Positions 3,001 through 12,000 of a stretch of DNA of 35,278 nucleotides are shown here, in pieces. The stretch comes from Deinococcaceae bacterium (GTDB taxonomy: Bacteria > Deinococcota > Deinococci > Deinococcales > Trueperaceae). Location: the NCBI GenBank assembly GCA_040256005.1, contig JBDZWC010000008.1, positions 9,194-44,471 on the forward strand. Direction: 5' to 3'. The number at the start of each line of letters is the position of its first letter. Within the stretch, counting starts at the first letter, position 1. Position numbers: made by a program.

Positions 3001-6000
3001 GGACGTCGAGCAACTGCAGGACCTGGGCGAGCATAGACGTGGTCCTCTTCCCATCGTCGGCGACCTCGAGTGGCGCGAGACCATCGCCGCGCTGTTCGCC
3101 AGACCCGACGAGCTCGTCCTGGGGCTCGAGACCGCTAACCAGGCCCGACTGAGGTTCACGGCCGCGCTCCATGCCGTGCTGCGCTCTGCCGGCGCCGACG
3201 ACCTCAGCGCGGTGGCGACCCACGCCACGGTGATGACGTTGCTGCTGGCCGCCGGGAACGGCATCGGCGCGATGACGCTGTGGGGCTCGCTCGGCATGCC
3301 GGATGCCCTGTTCGTGGACTCGCGCCGCGGCTTCAGGCTCGTCGGTCGGGCCTGGCGAGGCACACCATGAGCGGGCTGGCCTCCGAGTAGCGGGAGCGGT
3401 CGAACCCGCCGTAAACGTCCAGGCGGAAGCCGGCCGCGCGACACAGCCTCTCGACCTCGAACCTCGTGTAGTAACGCTGCGTCAGCTCACTCACTCGGCG
3501 TCTCACGGTGCCGTCGGCGGCGACCGCGTCGTGGAGGTAGGTCGTGGTTACCAGCTGGGCCAGCGCGTCCACCGTCTGCACGAGGAAGACGTCCTCCCGT
3601 AGGGCGTCACCGGTCGGCGCCCGCGTGCCCAGCTCGGGCTCCCGCCGTACGACACCCAGGGGCCCGAACCGGGGCACGTACAGGTCGAACGCGAACACGC
3701 CGGCGTTATCCAGGTGGGCGGCGACGACCCCCATGGTCCTGTCCTGGTCGTCGAGCGTGTAGGCGTGCATGAGCGTGTTGAATGGGGCGATCACTAAGGA
3801 GAAGCGCTCTGGGAGGGACAGGTCGCGCATGTCGCCCTCGACCAGCCGCACGGAGTCGAGCAGGCCGGCGCCGGCGAGCCGCGACCTGGCGCGCGCCAGC
3901 ATCGCCGCCGAGCGCTCCACGGCGACGACGCGGTGACCCGCCCGCGCCAGCGCCTCCGTGACACGCCCGGTCCCGGCGCCCAACTCGAGGACCGGGGAGC
4001 CGACGTCGGCGGCCAGCCGCGTGTAGAACGGCAGGTCGTCGCGGTAGGCCAGGTAGTGAGCGTCGTAGAGGTCGGCGTCGTCGTAGATCAACCGGGATAC
4101 CTCACGCCTCGGCCACCCCGTCCTCCTGGTCCTGGGCGGGAGCCAGCTCCAAGACCATGTCGGCAGCCGCCGTCAAGGCGGGCCGGTGGCTGACAGCGAC
4201 GACGAGACGCTCGGCCGCCAAGCCCGCCAGCAGCGAGACGACGCCGGCCTCGGCGGCCTCGTCGAGATTCGAGGTGGGCTCGTCCAGCAGCAGTACCCGC
4301 GGTAGGCCCACCAACGCCCTGGCGATCGCCAGGCGCTGCCGTTGGCCACCGGACAGCCCGCTACCGTCCTCTCCCAGTTCGGCGTCGAGCCCACCCGGCA
4401 GCCCGGCCACGACGTCAGCCACTCCGGCGGCGGCCAGCGCCGCCCACAGCTCGCCTTCGTCCGTGCCTCTGCCCAGGTCGAGGGTCTCCCGCACGGAGCC
4501 GGAGAGCAGCTCGTGCCCCTGAGGCACGTACGCGACCTCGCGGCGCAGCTCCTCCTCGGGTAGCTGACGCAGGTCGCGCCCGCTCAGCGTCACCTCCCCG
4601 CGCACCGGTGGCAGCAGCCCGAGGAGCGTGCGCAGGAGCGTGGTCTTGCCCGCGCCACTGGGTCCGGTCACGACCACGAGGCCGGAAGCCGGCAGCGACA
4701 TGTCGAGACCGGAGATGACCGGCCTGGCGGGGTCGACGCCTGCCGCCAGGCCCCGAGCGCCAAGTACGTCGCCGGCGCCTGCGAAAAGCCCCCTGAGGCT
4801 CACCGTGGCGGAACCGGTGGCAGGCGGAACGGCGAGCTCCGCGGGTGCCGTGTTGGCAGCGAGAGACTCGATGCGGCGTGCCGCTGCCTCCGCCTGCCGG
4901 TACATGGCGTAGGCGGCGGGCAGCAGTTGGGCCGGCGTAGCGGCCAACGCGACGAGGGTAAGGAAGGTGACCATCTCGCCCACGCTCAGCTCTCCGCGCT
5001 GCACCGACCCGGTGAGGACCACCACCAGCGCCCCCAGGGCGCCGAACAACAGCACCTGCGTGAGCGGCACCTGGAGGGCGGCCAGCAGGCTGCGCCTCGT
5101 CGTGGTCTCGGCCGTGGCGCGGTTCGCGGCCTCGAAACGCCGCAGCGCGAAGCGCCTGGCGCCGAACGCGGCGATCGTCTCGTGATGACGCACGCCCTCC
5201 TGCAGGTGACGGCCGATGGACTCCGTCCCCTCCATGGAGCCGGTGGACGCACGCTGGAGCGCGAGCCCCACGCGCCGCAACACGAGGGCGGCCGGGACGC
5301 CCAGCACGACGAGCAGGCCGGCAGCCACCGGGTCGGCGCGCACCAGGGCCGCGAGGATCAGGACCAGCGTCACGCCCTCGGCCACCAGCGACCCCAGGCC
5401 GTAGCGAACGTAGGTCTCGACCTCCTTGACGTCGGTCACCAGGCGGCTGGCCAGCGCCCCGCTCGAGCCCGGCAGGGTCCCTACCGGGCGCCCGAGGAGC
5501 TCCTCGTAAACCGCGCTGCGGACGCGGGCAGCGCCGTGCGCGGCGGCCCGGCCCAGCAAGGCGTCCTGCGCGAGGAGCGCCAGGCTGCCGATGAGGACGA
5601 CCACGCCCGCGACAACGAGGAGGCCGGGCAAGTGGCTGGGGTCCTGCAGGGCCCTGTCGATGAGCGGGGTCACGAAGACCGGGATCACGGCCACGCGCGA
5701 CACGGCGTTGACCACCGCCGCCAGCATTCCGACGACGGCGTCAGGTCTCCGCGGCCACAGCAGACGGGCCGCGGTGACGCTCTCAGGCGGCCGGTACGGC
5801 ACGCAACCCCGCGCGGTCGCTGACGGTGCTGACGAGCGCTTTCGCCGCGCCCGGTCGTGGCATCGTCTCGCGCAGCCTGAGCCGGCGCCGCTCGAGGCCG
5901 GCGTCGTCCGCCAGCAGGGAGAGGGCCGTCTCGGCCACGCCGTCTGGGTGGAGGCGTCCGGCGACCTCCACCATCAGGTCCTCGCCGGTGATGCGGTTGG

Positions 6001-9000: not shown

Positions 9001-12000
9001 ACGCGGGTCGCGACCGGCTTCTCGACCAGCACATGGACACCGGCGCCCAGCAGCTGCCTCGTGACGGAGTAGTGGAGGCTCGTGGGCGTCGCGACGCTGG
9101 CCGCATCGACGCGTTCGCCCGCCAGCAGGGCCCCGACACTCGAATAGGCGGCCACGCCCAGCTCGATCTGGGCCGAGAGTCGCCTGTCTGGATCCGGGTC
9201 CACGACGGCCACCAGTTCGGCACCGGGCAGGGACGCATAGTTCATGGCGTGGTACCGGCCCCTCACGCCGTAGCCCACCACCGCGATGCGGGAGCTCACG
9301 CCGTGCGCTGTCCTGGCTGCGTGCCGGTCCGCGCCGGAGCCGCCCGGCTCAGTATGGCGAGCATGAGAGCGTGGTGGAGTGCGTGCGAGCCGCGCTCGAT
9401 GGTGAGGCTGGCTTCGAGCGGGCGGGCGAGGAGGGCGAGGTCTCCGAGGGCGTCGAGCGCCTTGTGACGCACGGGTTCGTCCTCGAACCTGAGTGGGCGC
9501 AGCGGCCCGTCATCGCCGAAGACGATAGCATGCTCCAAGCTGGCGCCCCGAGCGAGCCCGCGCCTGACGAGAACCTCGGCCTCGGCCAGCAGGCCGAACG
9601 TGCGGGCCCCCAGCAGCGCCCCGTATCCCGCCGGACCACCGCTCCACTCCTGACTGCCGATGGCGGGGTGGGCGAACTCGATGCGGCACGAGAGGCTCTC
9701 CGAACCGGGTGAGGCTCGCGCCACAGAGCTCCCGCGCGTCACCACGACGTCCGCGCCGAGCTTCAGGGGCTCCGGGGCCGCGGGCGGCGCCCCCAGCGCT
9801 TCCACGTGTTCGAGCCAGGGTAGGGCGGAGCCGTCGAGGATGGGTAGCTCGTCAGCGGTCGCCTCGACCACGACGCCGGAGTAGAAGCCGGCGACCCGCA
9901 GCGCCGCCAGCAGGTGCTCGACGAGCGAGACCTTCGCGCCCCCTTGGGACAACGTCACGGCGCGGTCGGTGGAGGCGACGCGTGAGACGTGAGCGGGGAT
10001 ATCGGTCCCGGCCCTCCTGAAGCGCAGCGGGCCCTCCGACCGGTGCAGCCACACGGTGCACTCCGTGCCGCTGTGCAGGCCCACCCCGCGCACTGCGGTC
10101 CCCACGTCAGCCGCGTTCCATCCGCTTTACGGCGCGCCAGACGTCCTCGAGGCGCTCCAGCAGGTACAGCGAGCGAGCGTACTGACGGTGTGGCCTGGCG
10201 GGGAAGCCGGCCCAGGTCTCGCCCGGCGGCACGTCCTTGGTCACCCCGCTGCGTCCCGCGATGCGTGCGCCGGAACCGATGATGACGTGGTCCGAGACCG
10301 CCACCGCGCCGCCGATGATGACGCCGTCCCCCACGCGGGCGCTGCCCGCGATGCCGGTCATGCCGGCGACCAGGCAGTCGGAGCCGATGATCACGTTGTG
10401 TCCCACCTGGCACAGGTTGTCGATCTTGGTGCGGGCGCCCACGACGGTATCGTCCAGCGTGCCGCGGTCGACGGCCGTGTTGGCGCCGATCTCCACGTCG
10501 TCTGCGAGCGTCACGCCGCCGAGCTGCCGGATCTTCACGGCGCCGGCGGGGGAGGCGGCGTAGCCGAAACCGTCCGCGCCTATCACGGCGCCCGCGTGAA
10601 GCACCACGCGGGCGCCCAGCGTCACCCCGTCGTAGACGGTGACGTTGGCGTGCAGCACGCAACCCGCTCCTATGACGGCGTTGGCGCCAACGCTCGCGCC
10701 CGGCCCCACGTAGCTGCCGTCGCCTATGGAGGCGCCGGGTCCCACGTAGCTGCCAGCTTCTAGCGACACGCCGCTGCCCAGGCTGGCAGCAGGGTGGACG
10801 TGGGCGGCAGCGCTCACCTCGCCCGTGAACGGCCGCGGCCTGGCGTCCAGGAGGGCGCTGAGGCGGGCGAGAGCCAACCGCGGCTCGCCTACCCTCACGG
10901 TGGGCAGCGCGGCCAACGGACCCTCCAAACCGGCTACCTCCCCCAGCACCAAGAGGCCCGGCAGCACGGGGGCCCCGGCCAGACGCGCGAGCTCCTGCTC
11001 GCTGGGCACGACGACGACAGCGGAACCCGCTTCCGGGTAGCCGCGCGACAGCCTCTCGACCGACGCCAGGTGGTCGAGCGCCCGCGCGCCCTCGCCCCGG
11101 CTCAGCGTGCCGCCGACGGCATCCGCGATCTCCTGCGGTGACAGCTCGGGCGGTCCGCCGGCCATCACTCGTCCTCCTCCGCGGCCGAGCCCGGCGCCTC
11201 CGGGGGCTGCGCCTGCTCGTCGGTTCCGGGCGCTGCCTCCTCTTCGGTCTCACCTGCGTCACGGATCGTCACGTGCAGGTCCTGGCTGCCGATCACGACC
11301 CAGGGTAGCGGCGCGCGTGAGAGACGCCTGACGTCCCCGTGTTCGTCCACGGACTCGAACACGATCTCGCTACCCTGCACCTGGTTGCGCAGGGCGTCGA
11401 CGAGCTCGGCGAAGGTGCCCGGCTCTTCCACCTCCCCGCCCTCCTCGGGCGCGCCCTCGATCTCCCTCGGCACGTCGCCGCCGCGCACCAGTAGGGTTAT
11501 GTCGCCGGTGAGGTCGTCCGGCAGGGGGACGCTGAACGTGCGCACCACGGCCTGGCGGCGGTACGGCTGCAGCCTCACGTGAACGATGGCGTGTCCACCC
11601 GCCACCAGGTCCTCGGTCTCGAGCACGAGCTTCGCGACCTCGGCGCTGCCGGGGTCACGGTCGAAGCTGACGCTCAGTGAGACCTGGCTGACCTCCGGCG
11701 GCGCGAACCGGTTCGTGGCCAGGATCGCCAGAGGCCCCGCCGCGAGCCGCGCGGCGTCCAGGGCGATGTCGTTGGTGCTCGAGACCTGCTCCACGACGTT
11801 GACCCGGTCCCCGCCGGCAAGGGTCACTTCCCAGGCGAGCTCCGCTCGCCCCGGCCCCGTGGCACGCAGCACGCGGTCGGCCGCCTCCAACGTGGCGATG
11901 GCCGCGAGCTGGGGGTAGAGGCGCTCGTCGTCGGCCAGCGCCACAGCGAACCGCTCCTCCCTGTCACCGGCCACCACCGCGAGCTGCAGCCTGACCACGC

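Follow-up and report, generated by a model that had tools for sequence, protein, structure and literature searches.

A reduced set of lipid A genes in a Trueperaceae bacterium (Deinococcales) and its relatives probably directs, to judge from sequence, the synthesis of an outer-membrane glycolipid other than ordinary lipid A, because the normal joining enzyme of the pathway could not be found and its place is taken by an uncharacterised look-alike, hereafter B*. We see an even chance that the genes specify a non-canonical route, free of both Kdo and LpxB, to a glycolipid of amide-linked acyl-2,3-diaminoglucose that probably differs from the standard disaccharide. The analysis covers a window of 35,278 nucleotides (contig JBDZWC010000008.1, positions 9,194 to 44,471) and related genomes of the order, grouped into families f1 to f5, with the present genome in f1.

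The lpx operon is genuine, conserved, and under purifying selection. A preliminary description had placed seven genes, lpxD to an ABC exporter, at 4102..11165; all seven lie there on the minus strand in the order given, and only the upper bound needs correction, as it cuts 3 nt off lpxD, which ends at 11168 (Table 1). Since adjacent genes from mreB to a methyltransferase gene either overlap or lie 0-24 nt apart, mreB is probably the start of the transcription unit. It lies 2 nt from the next gene, heads the operon in f1, f3, f4, and f5, and still adjoins fabZ in the lpx-negative genomes G003 and G018. The SpoIVB/peptidase S55-like gene is a conserved neighbour outside the core pathway, occupying the mreB-lpxD interval in most f1 and 6/6 f5 regions and missing there in f3/f4. 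The exporter follows B* in f1, f3, f4, and f5, and an exporter of MsbA-like type occurs in 47/80 B* loci of other bacteria. The methyltransferase gene, 10 nt past the exporter, recurs in many f1 and f5 loci and is not part of the f3/f4 operons. GC3 is 0.87-0.94 across the operon genes.

Table 1. Genes of the lpx transcription unit and its neighbour, in window coordinates
Feature	Position	Strand	Evidence
mreB, probable first gene of the unit	12907..13950	-	Pfam MreB_Mbl and TIGR00904 above cut-off
SpoIVB/peptidase S55-like protein, neighbour	11165..12904	-	weak PF05580 match, under cut-off
LpxD N-acyltransferase (second acyl chain)	10107..11168	-	TIGR01853 299.8 bits, cut-off 242.5
LpxC deacetylase	9296..10105	-	PF03331 E 3e-59; TIGR00325 155 bits, under cut-off 187
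GnnA-like UDP-GlcNAc 3-dehydrogenase (Gfo/Idh/MocA)	8337..9299	-	only PDB match at E<=1e-15 is 7bvj
FabZ	7893..8312	-	NF000582 and TIGR01750 above cut-off
LpxA acyltransferase (first chain)	7010..7891	-	NF003657 245.9, cut-off 226; start 7891 placed by the 1-nt gap to fabZ
B*, LpxB-paralogous GT-B glycosyltransferase, NxPGE type	5783..7009	-	uncharacterised family, not canonical LpxB
MsbA-like ABC exporter (putative flippase)	4102..5802	-	ABC_membrane and ABC_tran; TIGR02203 204.8 bits, far under cut-off 602
Class I SAM methyltransferase, conserved last gene	3333..4091	-	Methyltransf_25

Across three genome pairs, dN/dS is 0.07-0.33 for all pathway genes: 0.07-0.09 for the dehydrogenase, among the most constrained, 0.08-0.15 for B*, 0.15-0.33 for LpxD, and 0.30-0.32 for LpxC, the top value in the operon. 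These values, together with open frames and retained active sites in four families, make it most improbable that the operon is a decaying relic on course to become lpx-negative like f2 and genus g31, with B* a non-catalytic leftover, even though such a view would accommodate the repeated losses across the order, their stepwise course (lpxB, lpxI, then lpxC/D), the missing catalytic Asp of B*, and the divergent N-terminus of LpxD.

Canonical LpxB (TIGR00215) was found in 0/201 order genomes, with four control genomes positive, and KdtA was above cut-off in 0/201; LpxK gave no full-length match in the 201 genomes, only 5 short partial hits, one of them above cut-off in an lpx-negative genome. 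KdsA was above cut-off in 0/5 genomes, and LpxH, LpxI, and LpxL were each found in 0/5. The earlier account of a pathway without Kdo and LpxK, and its reported absence of LpxK, KdtA, and LpxI, thus agree with these searches. Its further proposal, that B* serves as LpxB in a minimal lipid A route of four enzymes, is not supported: as B* is a paralogue and true LpxB is found in 0/201 genomes, the genes present do not imply a tetra-acyl lipid A disaccharide.

B* had been called an unannotated LpxB. This was overstated, since the protein just passes the Pfam LpxB cut-off (22.8 against 22.6 bits) and JGI names its relatives 'lipid-A-disaccharide synthase'; it has no NCBIfam match, and it is kin to LpxB without being the canonical enzyme. 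Alignment of the B* family with E. coli LpxB by hhalign gives a probability of 99.1 over 342 columns, and the AF2 model (pLDDT 92) has the GT-B fold, as claimed. A Foldseek ranking of epimerases above LpxB had been raised as a counter-argument. It carries no weight against the kinship, because a broad profile favours LpxB (E 6e-23, against 3e-5 for the epimerases) and the E. coli LpxB structure, to which the model superposes at an rmsd of 22 A, is domain-swapped (PMC5785501, in part).

We are confident that B* and LpxB are paralogues and not orthologues. The tree resolves three clades, LpxB, B*, and TIGR03492, with the Deinococcota sequences inside B*, and an AU test rejects grouping them with LpxB (p 0.012). 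Both genes share one locus in 22/80 B* loci of other bacteria, B* directly behind lpxB in 19/20 of those listed; 9/9 of these lpxB genes tested pass TIGR00215, and one protein, P0147, fuses the two. The identification of B* as canonical LpxB was rejected on this separate clade, co-occurrence, and fusion.

The conservation of the dehydrogenase inside the lpx operon across three families, as previously claimed, is evident between lpxC and fabZ in 31/40 lpxC-centred regions (f1 19/20, f3 2/2, f4 10/12, f5 0/6), and genome-wide an orthologue is found in f1 47/53, f3 2/23, f4 23/52, f2 0/53, and f5 0/19. Its GnnA-like identity is also upheld: the sole PDB match at E<=1e-15 is 7bvj (E 8e-40), which we take to be GnnA of Acidithiobacillus ferrooxidans, and K94 and H165 align with K91 and H164 of 7bvj and are kept in 52/53 rows. 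The best NCBIfam model, under cut-off, is UDP-GlcNAc 3-dehydrogenase. Identity is 36-40% to Gfo genes of other bacteria's lpx loci, against 27% to the nearest paralogue in its own genome.

No co-varying GnnB had been reported. We find a candidate in f3/f4, where a single DegT clade marks exactly the 25 lpx-positive of 75 genomes and 0/50 others, with a score gap from 8e-153 to 2.5e-121. It lies behind lptF/G in 10/10 loci examined; G018, which is lpx-negative, has the orthologous lptF/G but lacks the DegT gene behind them. This co-variation rests on few genus-level losses. The f1 candidates, that of this genome included, do not form one clade, occur in several contexts, and have WbpE-type enzymes nested among them; the candidate here (G000:C54:642-1766) has among its nearest annotated solved relatives DesV-type 2oga, WbpE, and QdtB, which we take to be C3-specific. 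G136 carries only long-branch orphan DegTs, and no candidate was found in G145, G175, or G184 by genome searches, which are prone to false negatives (the DegT of G036 was missed twice and found by a later search). The co-varying candidate puts the diamino backbone on a firmer footing than the earlier account allowed, and we consider this backbone fairly probable in f1, f3, and f4.

It is very unlikely, by comparison, that the backbone is ordinary glucosamine, with LpxA O-acylating UDP-GlcNAc and the dehydrogenase and DegT serving another surface sugar or persisting as old-cluster passengers. The f5 pathway does run without GnnA, the DegT of this genome is 60-65% identical to WbpE-type enzymes in polysaccharide clusters of lpx-negative genomes, and a bearing of the LpxA K76 change on amine selectivity is hypothetical. 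Against this view, translation of the dehydrogenase is coupled to that of lpxC, the gene disappears along with the operon in f3/f4, its constraint is among the strongest, and the same Gfo gene occurs within lpx operons of other bacteria, once (L248) with an adjoining DegT.

LpxA retains H125, H160, N198, and R204, with Ala at the K76 equivalent and Asn at that of D126; the K76 equivalent is Lys in 14/14 f5 genomes against 1/55 GnnA-positive rows, and we infer that LpxA acylates the 3-amine. In B*, E13, GSR177-179, T275, E279, and N338 are invariant or nearly so, and the Asp98 equivalent is Ser95. This catalytic-base column holds D or E in 126/128 outside homologues and D in 15/15 f5 genomes, and is acidic in 0/55 GnnA-positive rows. 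As f5 is one clade, the K76 and Asp contrasts each count as one event. In f3/f4 B*, an Asp three residues further on might act as base. LpxD keeps invariant equivalents of H239, N240, and H276; its N-terminal uridine-binding domain is divergent, the F41/Y47 equivalents not being retained in f1.

O-acylation by LpxA needs the pull of LpxC, and amide formation does not. Three separate Trueperaceae lineages (G136, G166, G169), each with an lpxC-positive genome as its sister, are missing lpxC and lpxD and retain gnnA, lpxA, and B* with intact active sites. Only the loss in G136, a single contig, is firm, because G166 and G169 are 94-95% complete and operons can be split in the family (G108). Among the f5 genomes, all without GnnA, 17/19 retain lpxC.

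In the route we favour, the GnnA-like enzyme would oxidise C3 of UDP-GlcNAc and the DegT enzyme would aminate it to UDP-GlcNAc3N, LpxA would place an amide-linked chain on the 3-amine, and LpxC and LpxD would exchange the 2-acetyl for a second chain, a step dispensable in some lineages. B* may then handle UDP-acyl-diaminoglucose, since neither true LpxB nor a lipid X-forming enzyme (LpxH, LpxI) was found. In this least certain step it would most likely join one acylated diamino sugar to a different lipid or to a glycan, and the product would be a 'half lipid A' with one sugar, one or two chains, and neither 4'-phosphate nor Kdo. The MsbA-like exporter would flip this glycolipid, and the order-wide Lpt system would move it outward. 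We lean slightly toward an end product other than the beta-1',6 tetra-acyl disaccharide. Against this route, the predicted lipid has not been seen in published compositions: 3-OH fatty acids make up less than 2% in Meiothermus ruber, which also lacks significant amounts of polar lipids with two chains (PMC3035268, in part), and no such lipid is listed for Truepera radiovictrix (PMC3072082).

B* could instead have taken over disaccharide synthesis, given that every donor-side residue of LpxB is kept and the gene order lpxA-B-msbA is preserved, and would then yield a Kdo-free, 4'-unphosphorylated, tetra-amide GlcN3N disaccharide with the help of an unrecognised pyrophosphatase or with a UDP-diacyl sugar as acceptor. 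The family occurs in 92/201 order genomes and 0/53 of f2, in line with its previously described spread, and in 87/87 lpxC-positive genomes; in 5/5 genomes B* alone matches PF02684, and it keeps PGSR, T-x-x-x-E, and LPN and lies between lpxA and the exporter. Some operons of other bacteria (L198, L217, L248) have canonical lpxB yet no lpxI, which makes an unknown hydrolase probable in them. This possibility is nonetheless a minority one in our judgement. Bacteria that have both true LpxB and B* carry B* as an additional enzyme, no GnnA-positive row retains the Asp98 equivalent, and the three lineages with B* but without LpxC/LpxD could not make a diacyl donor.

A variant of our favoured explanation swaps donor and acceptor, B* standing in for WaaA: an acylated glucosamine lipid would receive at its 6-OH the sugar of a plain UDP-sugar (e.g., glucose or galacturonic acid), the acceptor in Deinococcota being a monosaccharide lipid derived from the LpxA product. 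Nucleotidyltransferases and lptB/F/G lie near lpxB-B*-msbA loci, nine of which had no LpxK or WaaA match at E<=1e-25, in an annotation that covered selected ORFs only. The Atlas clusters closest to B* are mostly cyanobacterial, and cyanobacterial LPS is described as lacking Kdo (PMC3087551, in part). We think this unlikely, as release of UDP or UMP needs an enzyme not found (LpxH 0/5, LpxI 0/5) and a hydroxyl acceptor makes it harder to account for the lost general base.

E. coli LpxB (PDB 5W8N/5W8S/5W8X; TIGR00215) is the closest solved relative of B* by profile, with a GT-B fold in both and equivalents of E15, PGSR/R201, T277, E281, and N316 retained. B* differs in its separate clade, 17% identity, and loss of S17, and Deinococcota with GnnA have Ser, Asn, Ala, or Gly instead of D98, the predicted catalytic base (PMC5785501, in part). 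TIGR03492, 'lipid-A-disaccharide synthase-related protein', is a third, distinct LpxB-like clade, often found in B* clusters. This genome has a member (C172:10463-11584), and the family does not track lpxA, since it is present in lpx-negative lineages (f2 14/20, g31 7/13).

GnnA and GnnB of A. ferrooxidans make GlcN3N (as cited in PMC3342949, in part). The Lys and His at 7bvj positions 91 and 164 and the lpx-operon location are shared here; the candidate aminotransferase is encoded elsewhere (in f3/f4 behind lptF/G, in f1 at varied sites), and no canonical LpxB follows.

Antunes et al. 2016 (PMC5007114) reported lpxA/C/D in Deinococcus-Thermus, namely in T. radiovictrix, Marinithermus hydrothermalis, and M. 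ruber, in the same operon as here, and inferred an ancestor with an LPS outer membrane and later losses. The portions of that paper considered here do not mention B* paralogy, GnnA/GnnB, or the lpxC/D losses; for LpxB, the table of the paper enters 'no homologue' under Truepera and under Marinithermus, but under M. ruber the gene adjoining lpxA, which by accession adjacency we infer to be B*. A four-enzyme route, lpxD-lpxC-fabZ-lpxA-lpxB, is known from Cyanobacteria and Dictyoglomi (Opiyo et al. 2010, PMC3087551, in part). Gene order is alike, and LpxK, WaaA, and Kdo genes are missing from both, so that a Kdo-free product without 4'-phosphate is expected. However, Synechococcus elongatus, as control, passes TIGR00215, against 0/201 Deinococcales, and the present operon contains an inserted GnnA-like gene and carries the paralogue B* after lpxA.

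The genes of the lpx operon and their order are as a preliminary description had claimed; they lie on the minus strand of the window (see table), and the junctions between its genes are overlaps or gaps of 0-24 nt, with GC3 of 0.87-0.94. The GnnA-like dehydrogenase (G) lies inside the operon, as that description also held: it sits between lpxC and fabZ in 31 of 40 lpxC-centred regions (19/20 in f1, the window's family Trueperaceae; 2/2 in f3, 10/12 in f4 and 0/6 in f5, where f1-f5 are family codes within the order). The ABC exporter scores 204.8 bits on the MsbA model TIGR02203, whose cut-off is 602, and other exporter models score equally high; it is placed behind a lipid A glycosyltransferase, as MsbA is, both in relatives from the order and in loci of other bacteria. 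We searched the intra-operon insertions of relatives for a hidden LpxH or LpxI and rejected the idea, as the inserts are unrelated and not conserved. In three f5-type loci (L055, L056, L058), small PIN-domain-like genes (labelled by inspection) separate lpxA from B*. Operons of f5 are split; in four loci of genus g39 the methyltransferase comes next after B*, without an intervening exporter. One genome, G195, carries the lpx operon genes twice with identical scores on contigs C1 and C2, by duplication or assembly artefact. Among the unmatched long ORFs of the window, a 924-aa one upstream of mreB is conserved in many f1 genomes.

Features of the operon (in the order in which they occur), other window ORFs, and two genes elsewhere in the same genome (G000)
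Feature	Position	Strand	Remark
mreB		-	
S55-like gene		-	
lpxD	10107-11168	-	
lpxC		-	
G	8337-9299	-	GnnA-like Gfo/Idh/MocA dehydrogenase
fabZ		-	
lpxA		-	
B*	5783-7009	-	GT-B glycosyltransferase, LpxB-like
ABC exporter		-	
methyltransferase		-	
ORF	15083-17857		no Pfam/NCBIfam match
ORF	17934-19913		no Pfam/NCBIfam match
ORF	19910-20830		no Pfam/NCBIfam match
ORF	24009-25841		no Pfam/NCBIfam match
DegT aminotransferase gene	C54:642-1766		aldehyde dehydrogenase-like neighbour
TIGR03492 gene	C172:10463-11584		locus L281; above cut-off; third LpxB-like gene

Across 201 genomes of the order, lpxC, B* and G occur respectively in 44, 47 and 47 of 53 f1 genomes, in 2 of 23 (each gene) in f3, in 23 of 52 (each gene) in f4, and in 17, 19 and 0 of 19 in f5, counts in which related genomes are not independent and from which searches can have overlooked genes. 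Within f1, f3 and f4 the genomes with G are exactly those with B*. All three genes are missing from the 53 f2 genomes, so the reported absence of the glycosyltransferase from that family stands. From this presence pattern and a published table, we infer the identities Deinococcaceae for f2, Marinithermaceae for f3 and Thermaceae for f4.

Of the enzymes previously reported as absent, LpxK, KdtA and LpxI were likewise not recovered. No full-length LpxK (five short partial matches) and no KdtA above cut-off was found in the 201 genomes, and five genomes searched (G000, G016, G029, G008, G030) gave no match to LpxI, LpxH or LpxL and no KdsA above its cut-off. Canonical LpxB (TIGR00215) is found in 0/201, while the controls E. 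coli, Caulobacter, Synechococcus and Bacteroides all score. The earlier interpretation holds in part: its Kdo-less, LpxK-less character stands and its LpxB does not.

In two lpx-negative genomes (G003, G018; loci L192, L196), mreB, fabZ and an lptF/G gene lie side by side, which looks like the scar of an operon deletion. Co-variation of LptF/G with lpx was considered and rejected, as LptF/G is present in 201/201 genomes, mostly in three copies and with lpx-negative ones included (in G000, copies are on C112 and C141). Three lpx-negative f4 genomes (L193-L195) lack the LptD-like gene at its place between a small gene and lptF/G, but lpx-negative G018 keeps it (compare L145-L154, L191).

The kinship of B* to LpxB, on which the label "unannotated LpxB" rested, is well borne out: 43/43 aligned members match Pfam LpxB, hhalign of the family against E. 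coli LpxB gives a probability of 99.1 over 342 columns, and a 59-sequence profile finds E. coli LpxB at E 6e-23 versus 3e-5 for epimerases. Its identity as canonical LpxB is not, since the window protein has no NCBIfam match at E<=0.001 and hence falls below the TIGR00215 cut-off. Three clades emerge in the trees: canonical LpxB (E. coli included), B*, and TIGR03492. Every Deinococcota row falls within B*, and the window glycosyltransferase nests there at support 99; a grouping of Deinococcota with LpxB is rejected in an AU test of 25 rows (p 0.012), for a hypothesis set after the first tree was seen. Judged by sequence, B* is a paralogue of LpxB, without orthology to the E. coli enzyme. The window glycosyltransferase has several Trueperaceae MAGs among its named relatives (56-95% identity), which places the window in that family.

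The structural searches had raised another identity, UDP-GlcNAc 2-epimerase. The AF2 model of B* (pLDDT 92.4, built from an alignment; the single-sequence prediction reaches 35) is a GT-B fold, and its Foldseek and VIA matches are GT-B proteins. Foldseek does rank a Thermus epimerase first (E 1e-12 versus 2e-10 for LpxB), as reported earlier, with LpxB at an rmsd of 22 A; this rmsd is consistent with the C-terminal swap in the crystal form of E. coli LpxB (PMC5785501). LpxB is not among the 50 VIA matches listed, which is uninformative because the solved form is domain-swapped. The ranking stands but the epimerase identity is rejected, as PF02350 matches 0/43 members at E<=0.01 and Pfam LpxB matches them all; the likeness to the epimerase (Z 24.7, rmsd 3.8, 327 aligned) is generic to GT-B.

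The B* family is wide (428 clusters at E<=1e-30), and cyanobacteria account for most of its closest Atlas clusters. In the best 80 of 512 confirmed metagenome loci, a biased sample, canonical lpxB is also present in 22 (directly ahead of B* in 19/20 listed) and an MsbA-like exporter in 47; 9/9 tested lpxB genes from B* loci pass TIGR00215, and one protein (P0147) fuses canonical LpxB (E 8e-103) to B*. The fuller gene order in other bacteria is lpxD-C-fabZ-A-(I)-lpxB-B*-msbA-TIGR03492, and the Deinococcota operon is most simply read as this wider cluster with lpxI-lpxB excised. Many of the B* loci away from lpx (L198-L277) have the order thrC-DUF362-B*-msbA-lpxL-arnT-GT2-TIGR03492 (thrC, lpxL and arnT labelled by inspection of cluster representatives). 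In one protein, P0268, B* is joined to a GT2 domain, and an ICMT-like membrane methyltransferase occurs in 6 of the best 80 loci (L206, L217, L223, L253). We also considered TIGR03492 as an lpx-linked synthase and rejected it: the gene is found in 69/101 order genomes, among them lpx-negative lineages and the control D. radiodurans, so its substrate must be other than an LpxA product.

What B* does may be read from its active site, for which PMC5785501 gives the E. coli roles (E15, PGSR/R201, T277, E281, N316 and a predicted base, D98). The donor side is kept: E13 and R179 in 61/61 rows, T275 and E279 in 60/61, N338 in 59/61, and GSR177-179 as the equivalent of PGSR/R201. The base is not. A family GGD aligns to GID98 of E. 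coli, and the window protein has Ser95 there; the column is D/E in 126/128 outside homologues and D in 15/15 f5 genomes but acidic in 0/55 f1/f3/f4 rows (two loci duplicated among them) and 0/9 further rows. In f3/f4 an Asp lies three residues past the column, and in f1 there is mostly none. The GnnA-bearing lineages therefore carry a changed B*, although f5 is one clade and the contrast a single one. B* could be a donor-using transferase making a one-sugar glycolipid, to which we give an even chance; this reading is favoured because LpxB is absent and no source of lipid X is known. Alternatively, a B* with its donor side intact might have taken over disaccharide synthesis, which we entertain only tentatively, or might act in a WaaA-like role, which we consider unlikely.

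The sugar in such a glycolipid would depend on G. Its only strong PDB match is 7bvj, which we take to be Acidithiobacillus GnnA; K94/H165 of G align to K91/H164 of this Gfo/Idh/MocA fold, presumably catalytic, and are kept in 52/53 rows. Gfo genes from the lpx loci of other bacteria share 36-40% identity with G, against 27% between G and its own nearest paralogue, and in one such locus (L248) the Gfo gene adjoins a DegT aminotransferase gene. According to PMC3342949, GnnA and GnnB together produce GlcN3N. The preliminary description had found no co-varying GnnB; a candidate now exists in f3 and f4. A DegT query from G008 hits 25 genomes at E<=8e-153 (next score 2.5e-121), a set identical to the lpx-positive genomes of f3 and f4, against 0/50 of the others in these families. 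The lpx-linked f3/f4 genes form a clade and in 10/10 loci lie behind an lptF/G gene (PF03739), itself behind an LptD-like gene (an Atlas lead); there is no DegT behind the orthologous lptF/G of lpx-negative G018. Lower-scoring matches in f2 and genus g31 are mostly within WbpB-WbpD-WbpE clusters.

The case for a diamino route is weaker in f1 than in f3/f4. Neighbours of the orphan DegTs in f1 are metX/metZ (at times joined by relA and lptF/G), folD or, in G000, G051, G133 and G148, an aldehyde dehydrogenase-like gene. These DegTs do not form a single clade and have WbpE-type enzymes nested within their group. The G000 gene is an orphan of the same broad group as the f3/f4 clade, and no candidate was found in G145, G175 and G184 (90-92% complete). 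A count of 0/6 lpx-negative f1 genomes with DegT was withdrawn: G036 carries one, and is itself no valid lpx-negative genome because its mreB-S55 stretch runs into the contig end. In five f1 genomes (L156, L167, L169, L170, L183) the orphan DegT has an O-antigen ligase-like gene (PF04932) beside it or close by, hinting at a glycan ligated to the product. A plain glucosamine backbone seems highly improbable.

The acyltransferases offer further signs. At the E. coli K76 position LpxA has Lys in 14/14 f5 genomes and in 1/55 GnnA-positive rows; a tie to amine selectivity is our guess. LpxA D126N was discarded as a mark of N-acyltransferases, being present in 42/43 f1 rows but also in 6 GnnA-less f5 genomes, and not in f3/f4. 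The G173 position of f5 LpxA (L072, L283, L290-L301) is Met in 6/6 rows, presumably a short-chain ruler, and Ala/Gly elsewhere. The N-terminal domain of LpxD does not keep the aromatics of E. coli F41/Y47 in f1 and has no Pfam LpxD-domain match; its M290 position is mostly Gly or Ala, which we assume would permit longer acyl chains.

Three genomes, G136 (one contig, 97% complete), G166 (94%) and G169 (95%), have no LpxC or LpxD anywhere, while the controls G016 and G108 score. Each is sister to an lpxC-positive genome, has the S55-like gene directly ahead of G, and retains fabZ, lpxA, G and B*, whose active-site residues, where tested, are unchanged apart from H122Y in G166 LpxA; the DegTs of G136 are long-branch orphans. 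Simple NG86 estimates between the window and three close relatives put dN/dS at 0.07-0.09 for G, 0.08-0.15 for B*, 0.19-0.21 for lpxA, 0.15-0.33 for lpxD and 0.30-0.32 for lpxC; that the operon is simply decaying is barely credible to us. On gene content, LpxC and LpxD appear to be dispensable in some GnnA-positive lineages, with G136 the only firm case. O-acylation by LpxA is unfavourable, so that LpxC is needed, and acylation of a 3-amine is not. Together with these energetics, the losses support amine acylation and imply a B* able to use a one-chain product.

In the pathway we propose, GnnA and DegT would convert UDP-GlcNAc to UDP-GlcNAc3N, LpxA would 3-N-acylate it, LpxC and LpxD would optionally allow 2-N-acylation, and B* would transfer the acylated sugar, giving a product that the exporter would flip and Lpt export. 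Every productive model faces the chemotaxonomy: the sections seen of PMC3035268 give <2% 3-OH fatty acids for M. ruber, and those of PMC3072082 list none for T. radiovictrix. The product may be minor, overlooked by polar-lipid extraction, or without hydroxy-acyl chains. A broader proposal, possible but on balance doubtful, is that Deinococcota lack lipid A in the strict sense and use LpxA, GnnA/GnnB and the base-less paralogue to build a hydrolysis-resistant, amide-linked single-sugar anchor, one-chained in three lineages through LpxC/LpxD loss.

Such an anchor, if true, would be a new outer-membrane lipid class, a living intermediate in LPS loss and the first function for the widespread B* family, which is found in lipid A clusters of many little-studied diderms. 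Deinococcota have B* apart from canonical LpxB, and cultured strains (M. ruber, T. radiovictrix) belong to them. Nature also provides controls: one family lacks GnnA, some lineages lack LpxC/D, and lpx-negative sisters keep Lpt. An LpxA pathway without LpxC would itself be unusual. The presence of lpxA/B/C/D also underlies the argument that the Deinococcus-Thermus ancestor had LPS, which is invoked when one- and two-membrane origins are debated; if the counted "lpxB" is the paralogue and true LpxB is absent order-wide, the known lipid A route is impossible here and the order shows stepwise LPS loss.

In Antunes et al. 2016 (PMC5007114), LpxA, LpxC and LpxD are reported in T. radiovictrix, M. 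hydrothermalis and M. ruber, LpxB is listed as absent in the first two and in M. ruber as the gene adjoining lpxA, and an LPS outer membrane is inferred as ancestral. Given this work and Opiyo et al., lpx genes were already known in the phylum, and so was a Kdo-less minimal pathway. In the main text of PMC8871954, as far as accessible, "lpx" is absent. Among the matches listed we found no paper on B*, TIGR03492 or a Deinococcota lipid A structure, which subscription papers (e.g., Taib et al. 2020) or their supplements may cover; nor did the papers listed describe a gene set without LpxB, a GnnB candidate, the paralogue that lacks its base or the losses of lpxC/D. The earlier reading as a minimal lipid A pathway fails on LpxB membership, and the operon itself was already known. 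Canonical LpxB is part of the four-enzyme, cyanobacterial-type pathway, in contrast to the order studied here; LpxK, WaaA and KdsA were not found in Deinococcales searches, a likeness to it, and the window shares with it LpxA, LpxC and LpxD.
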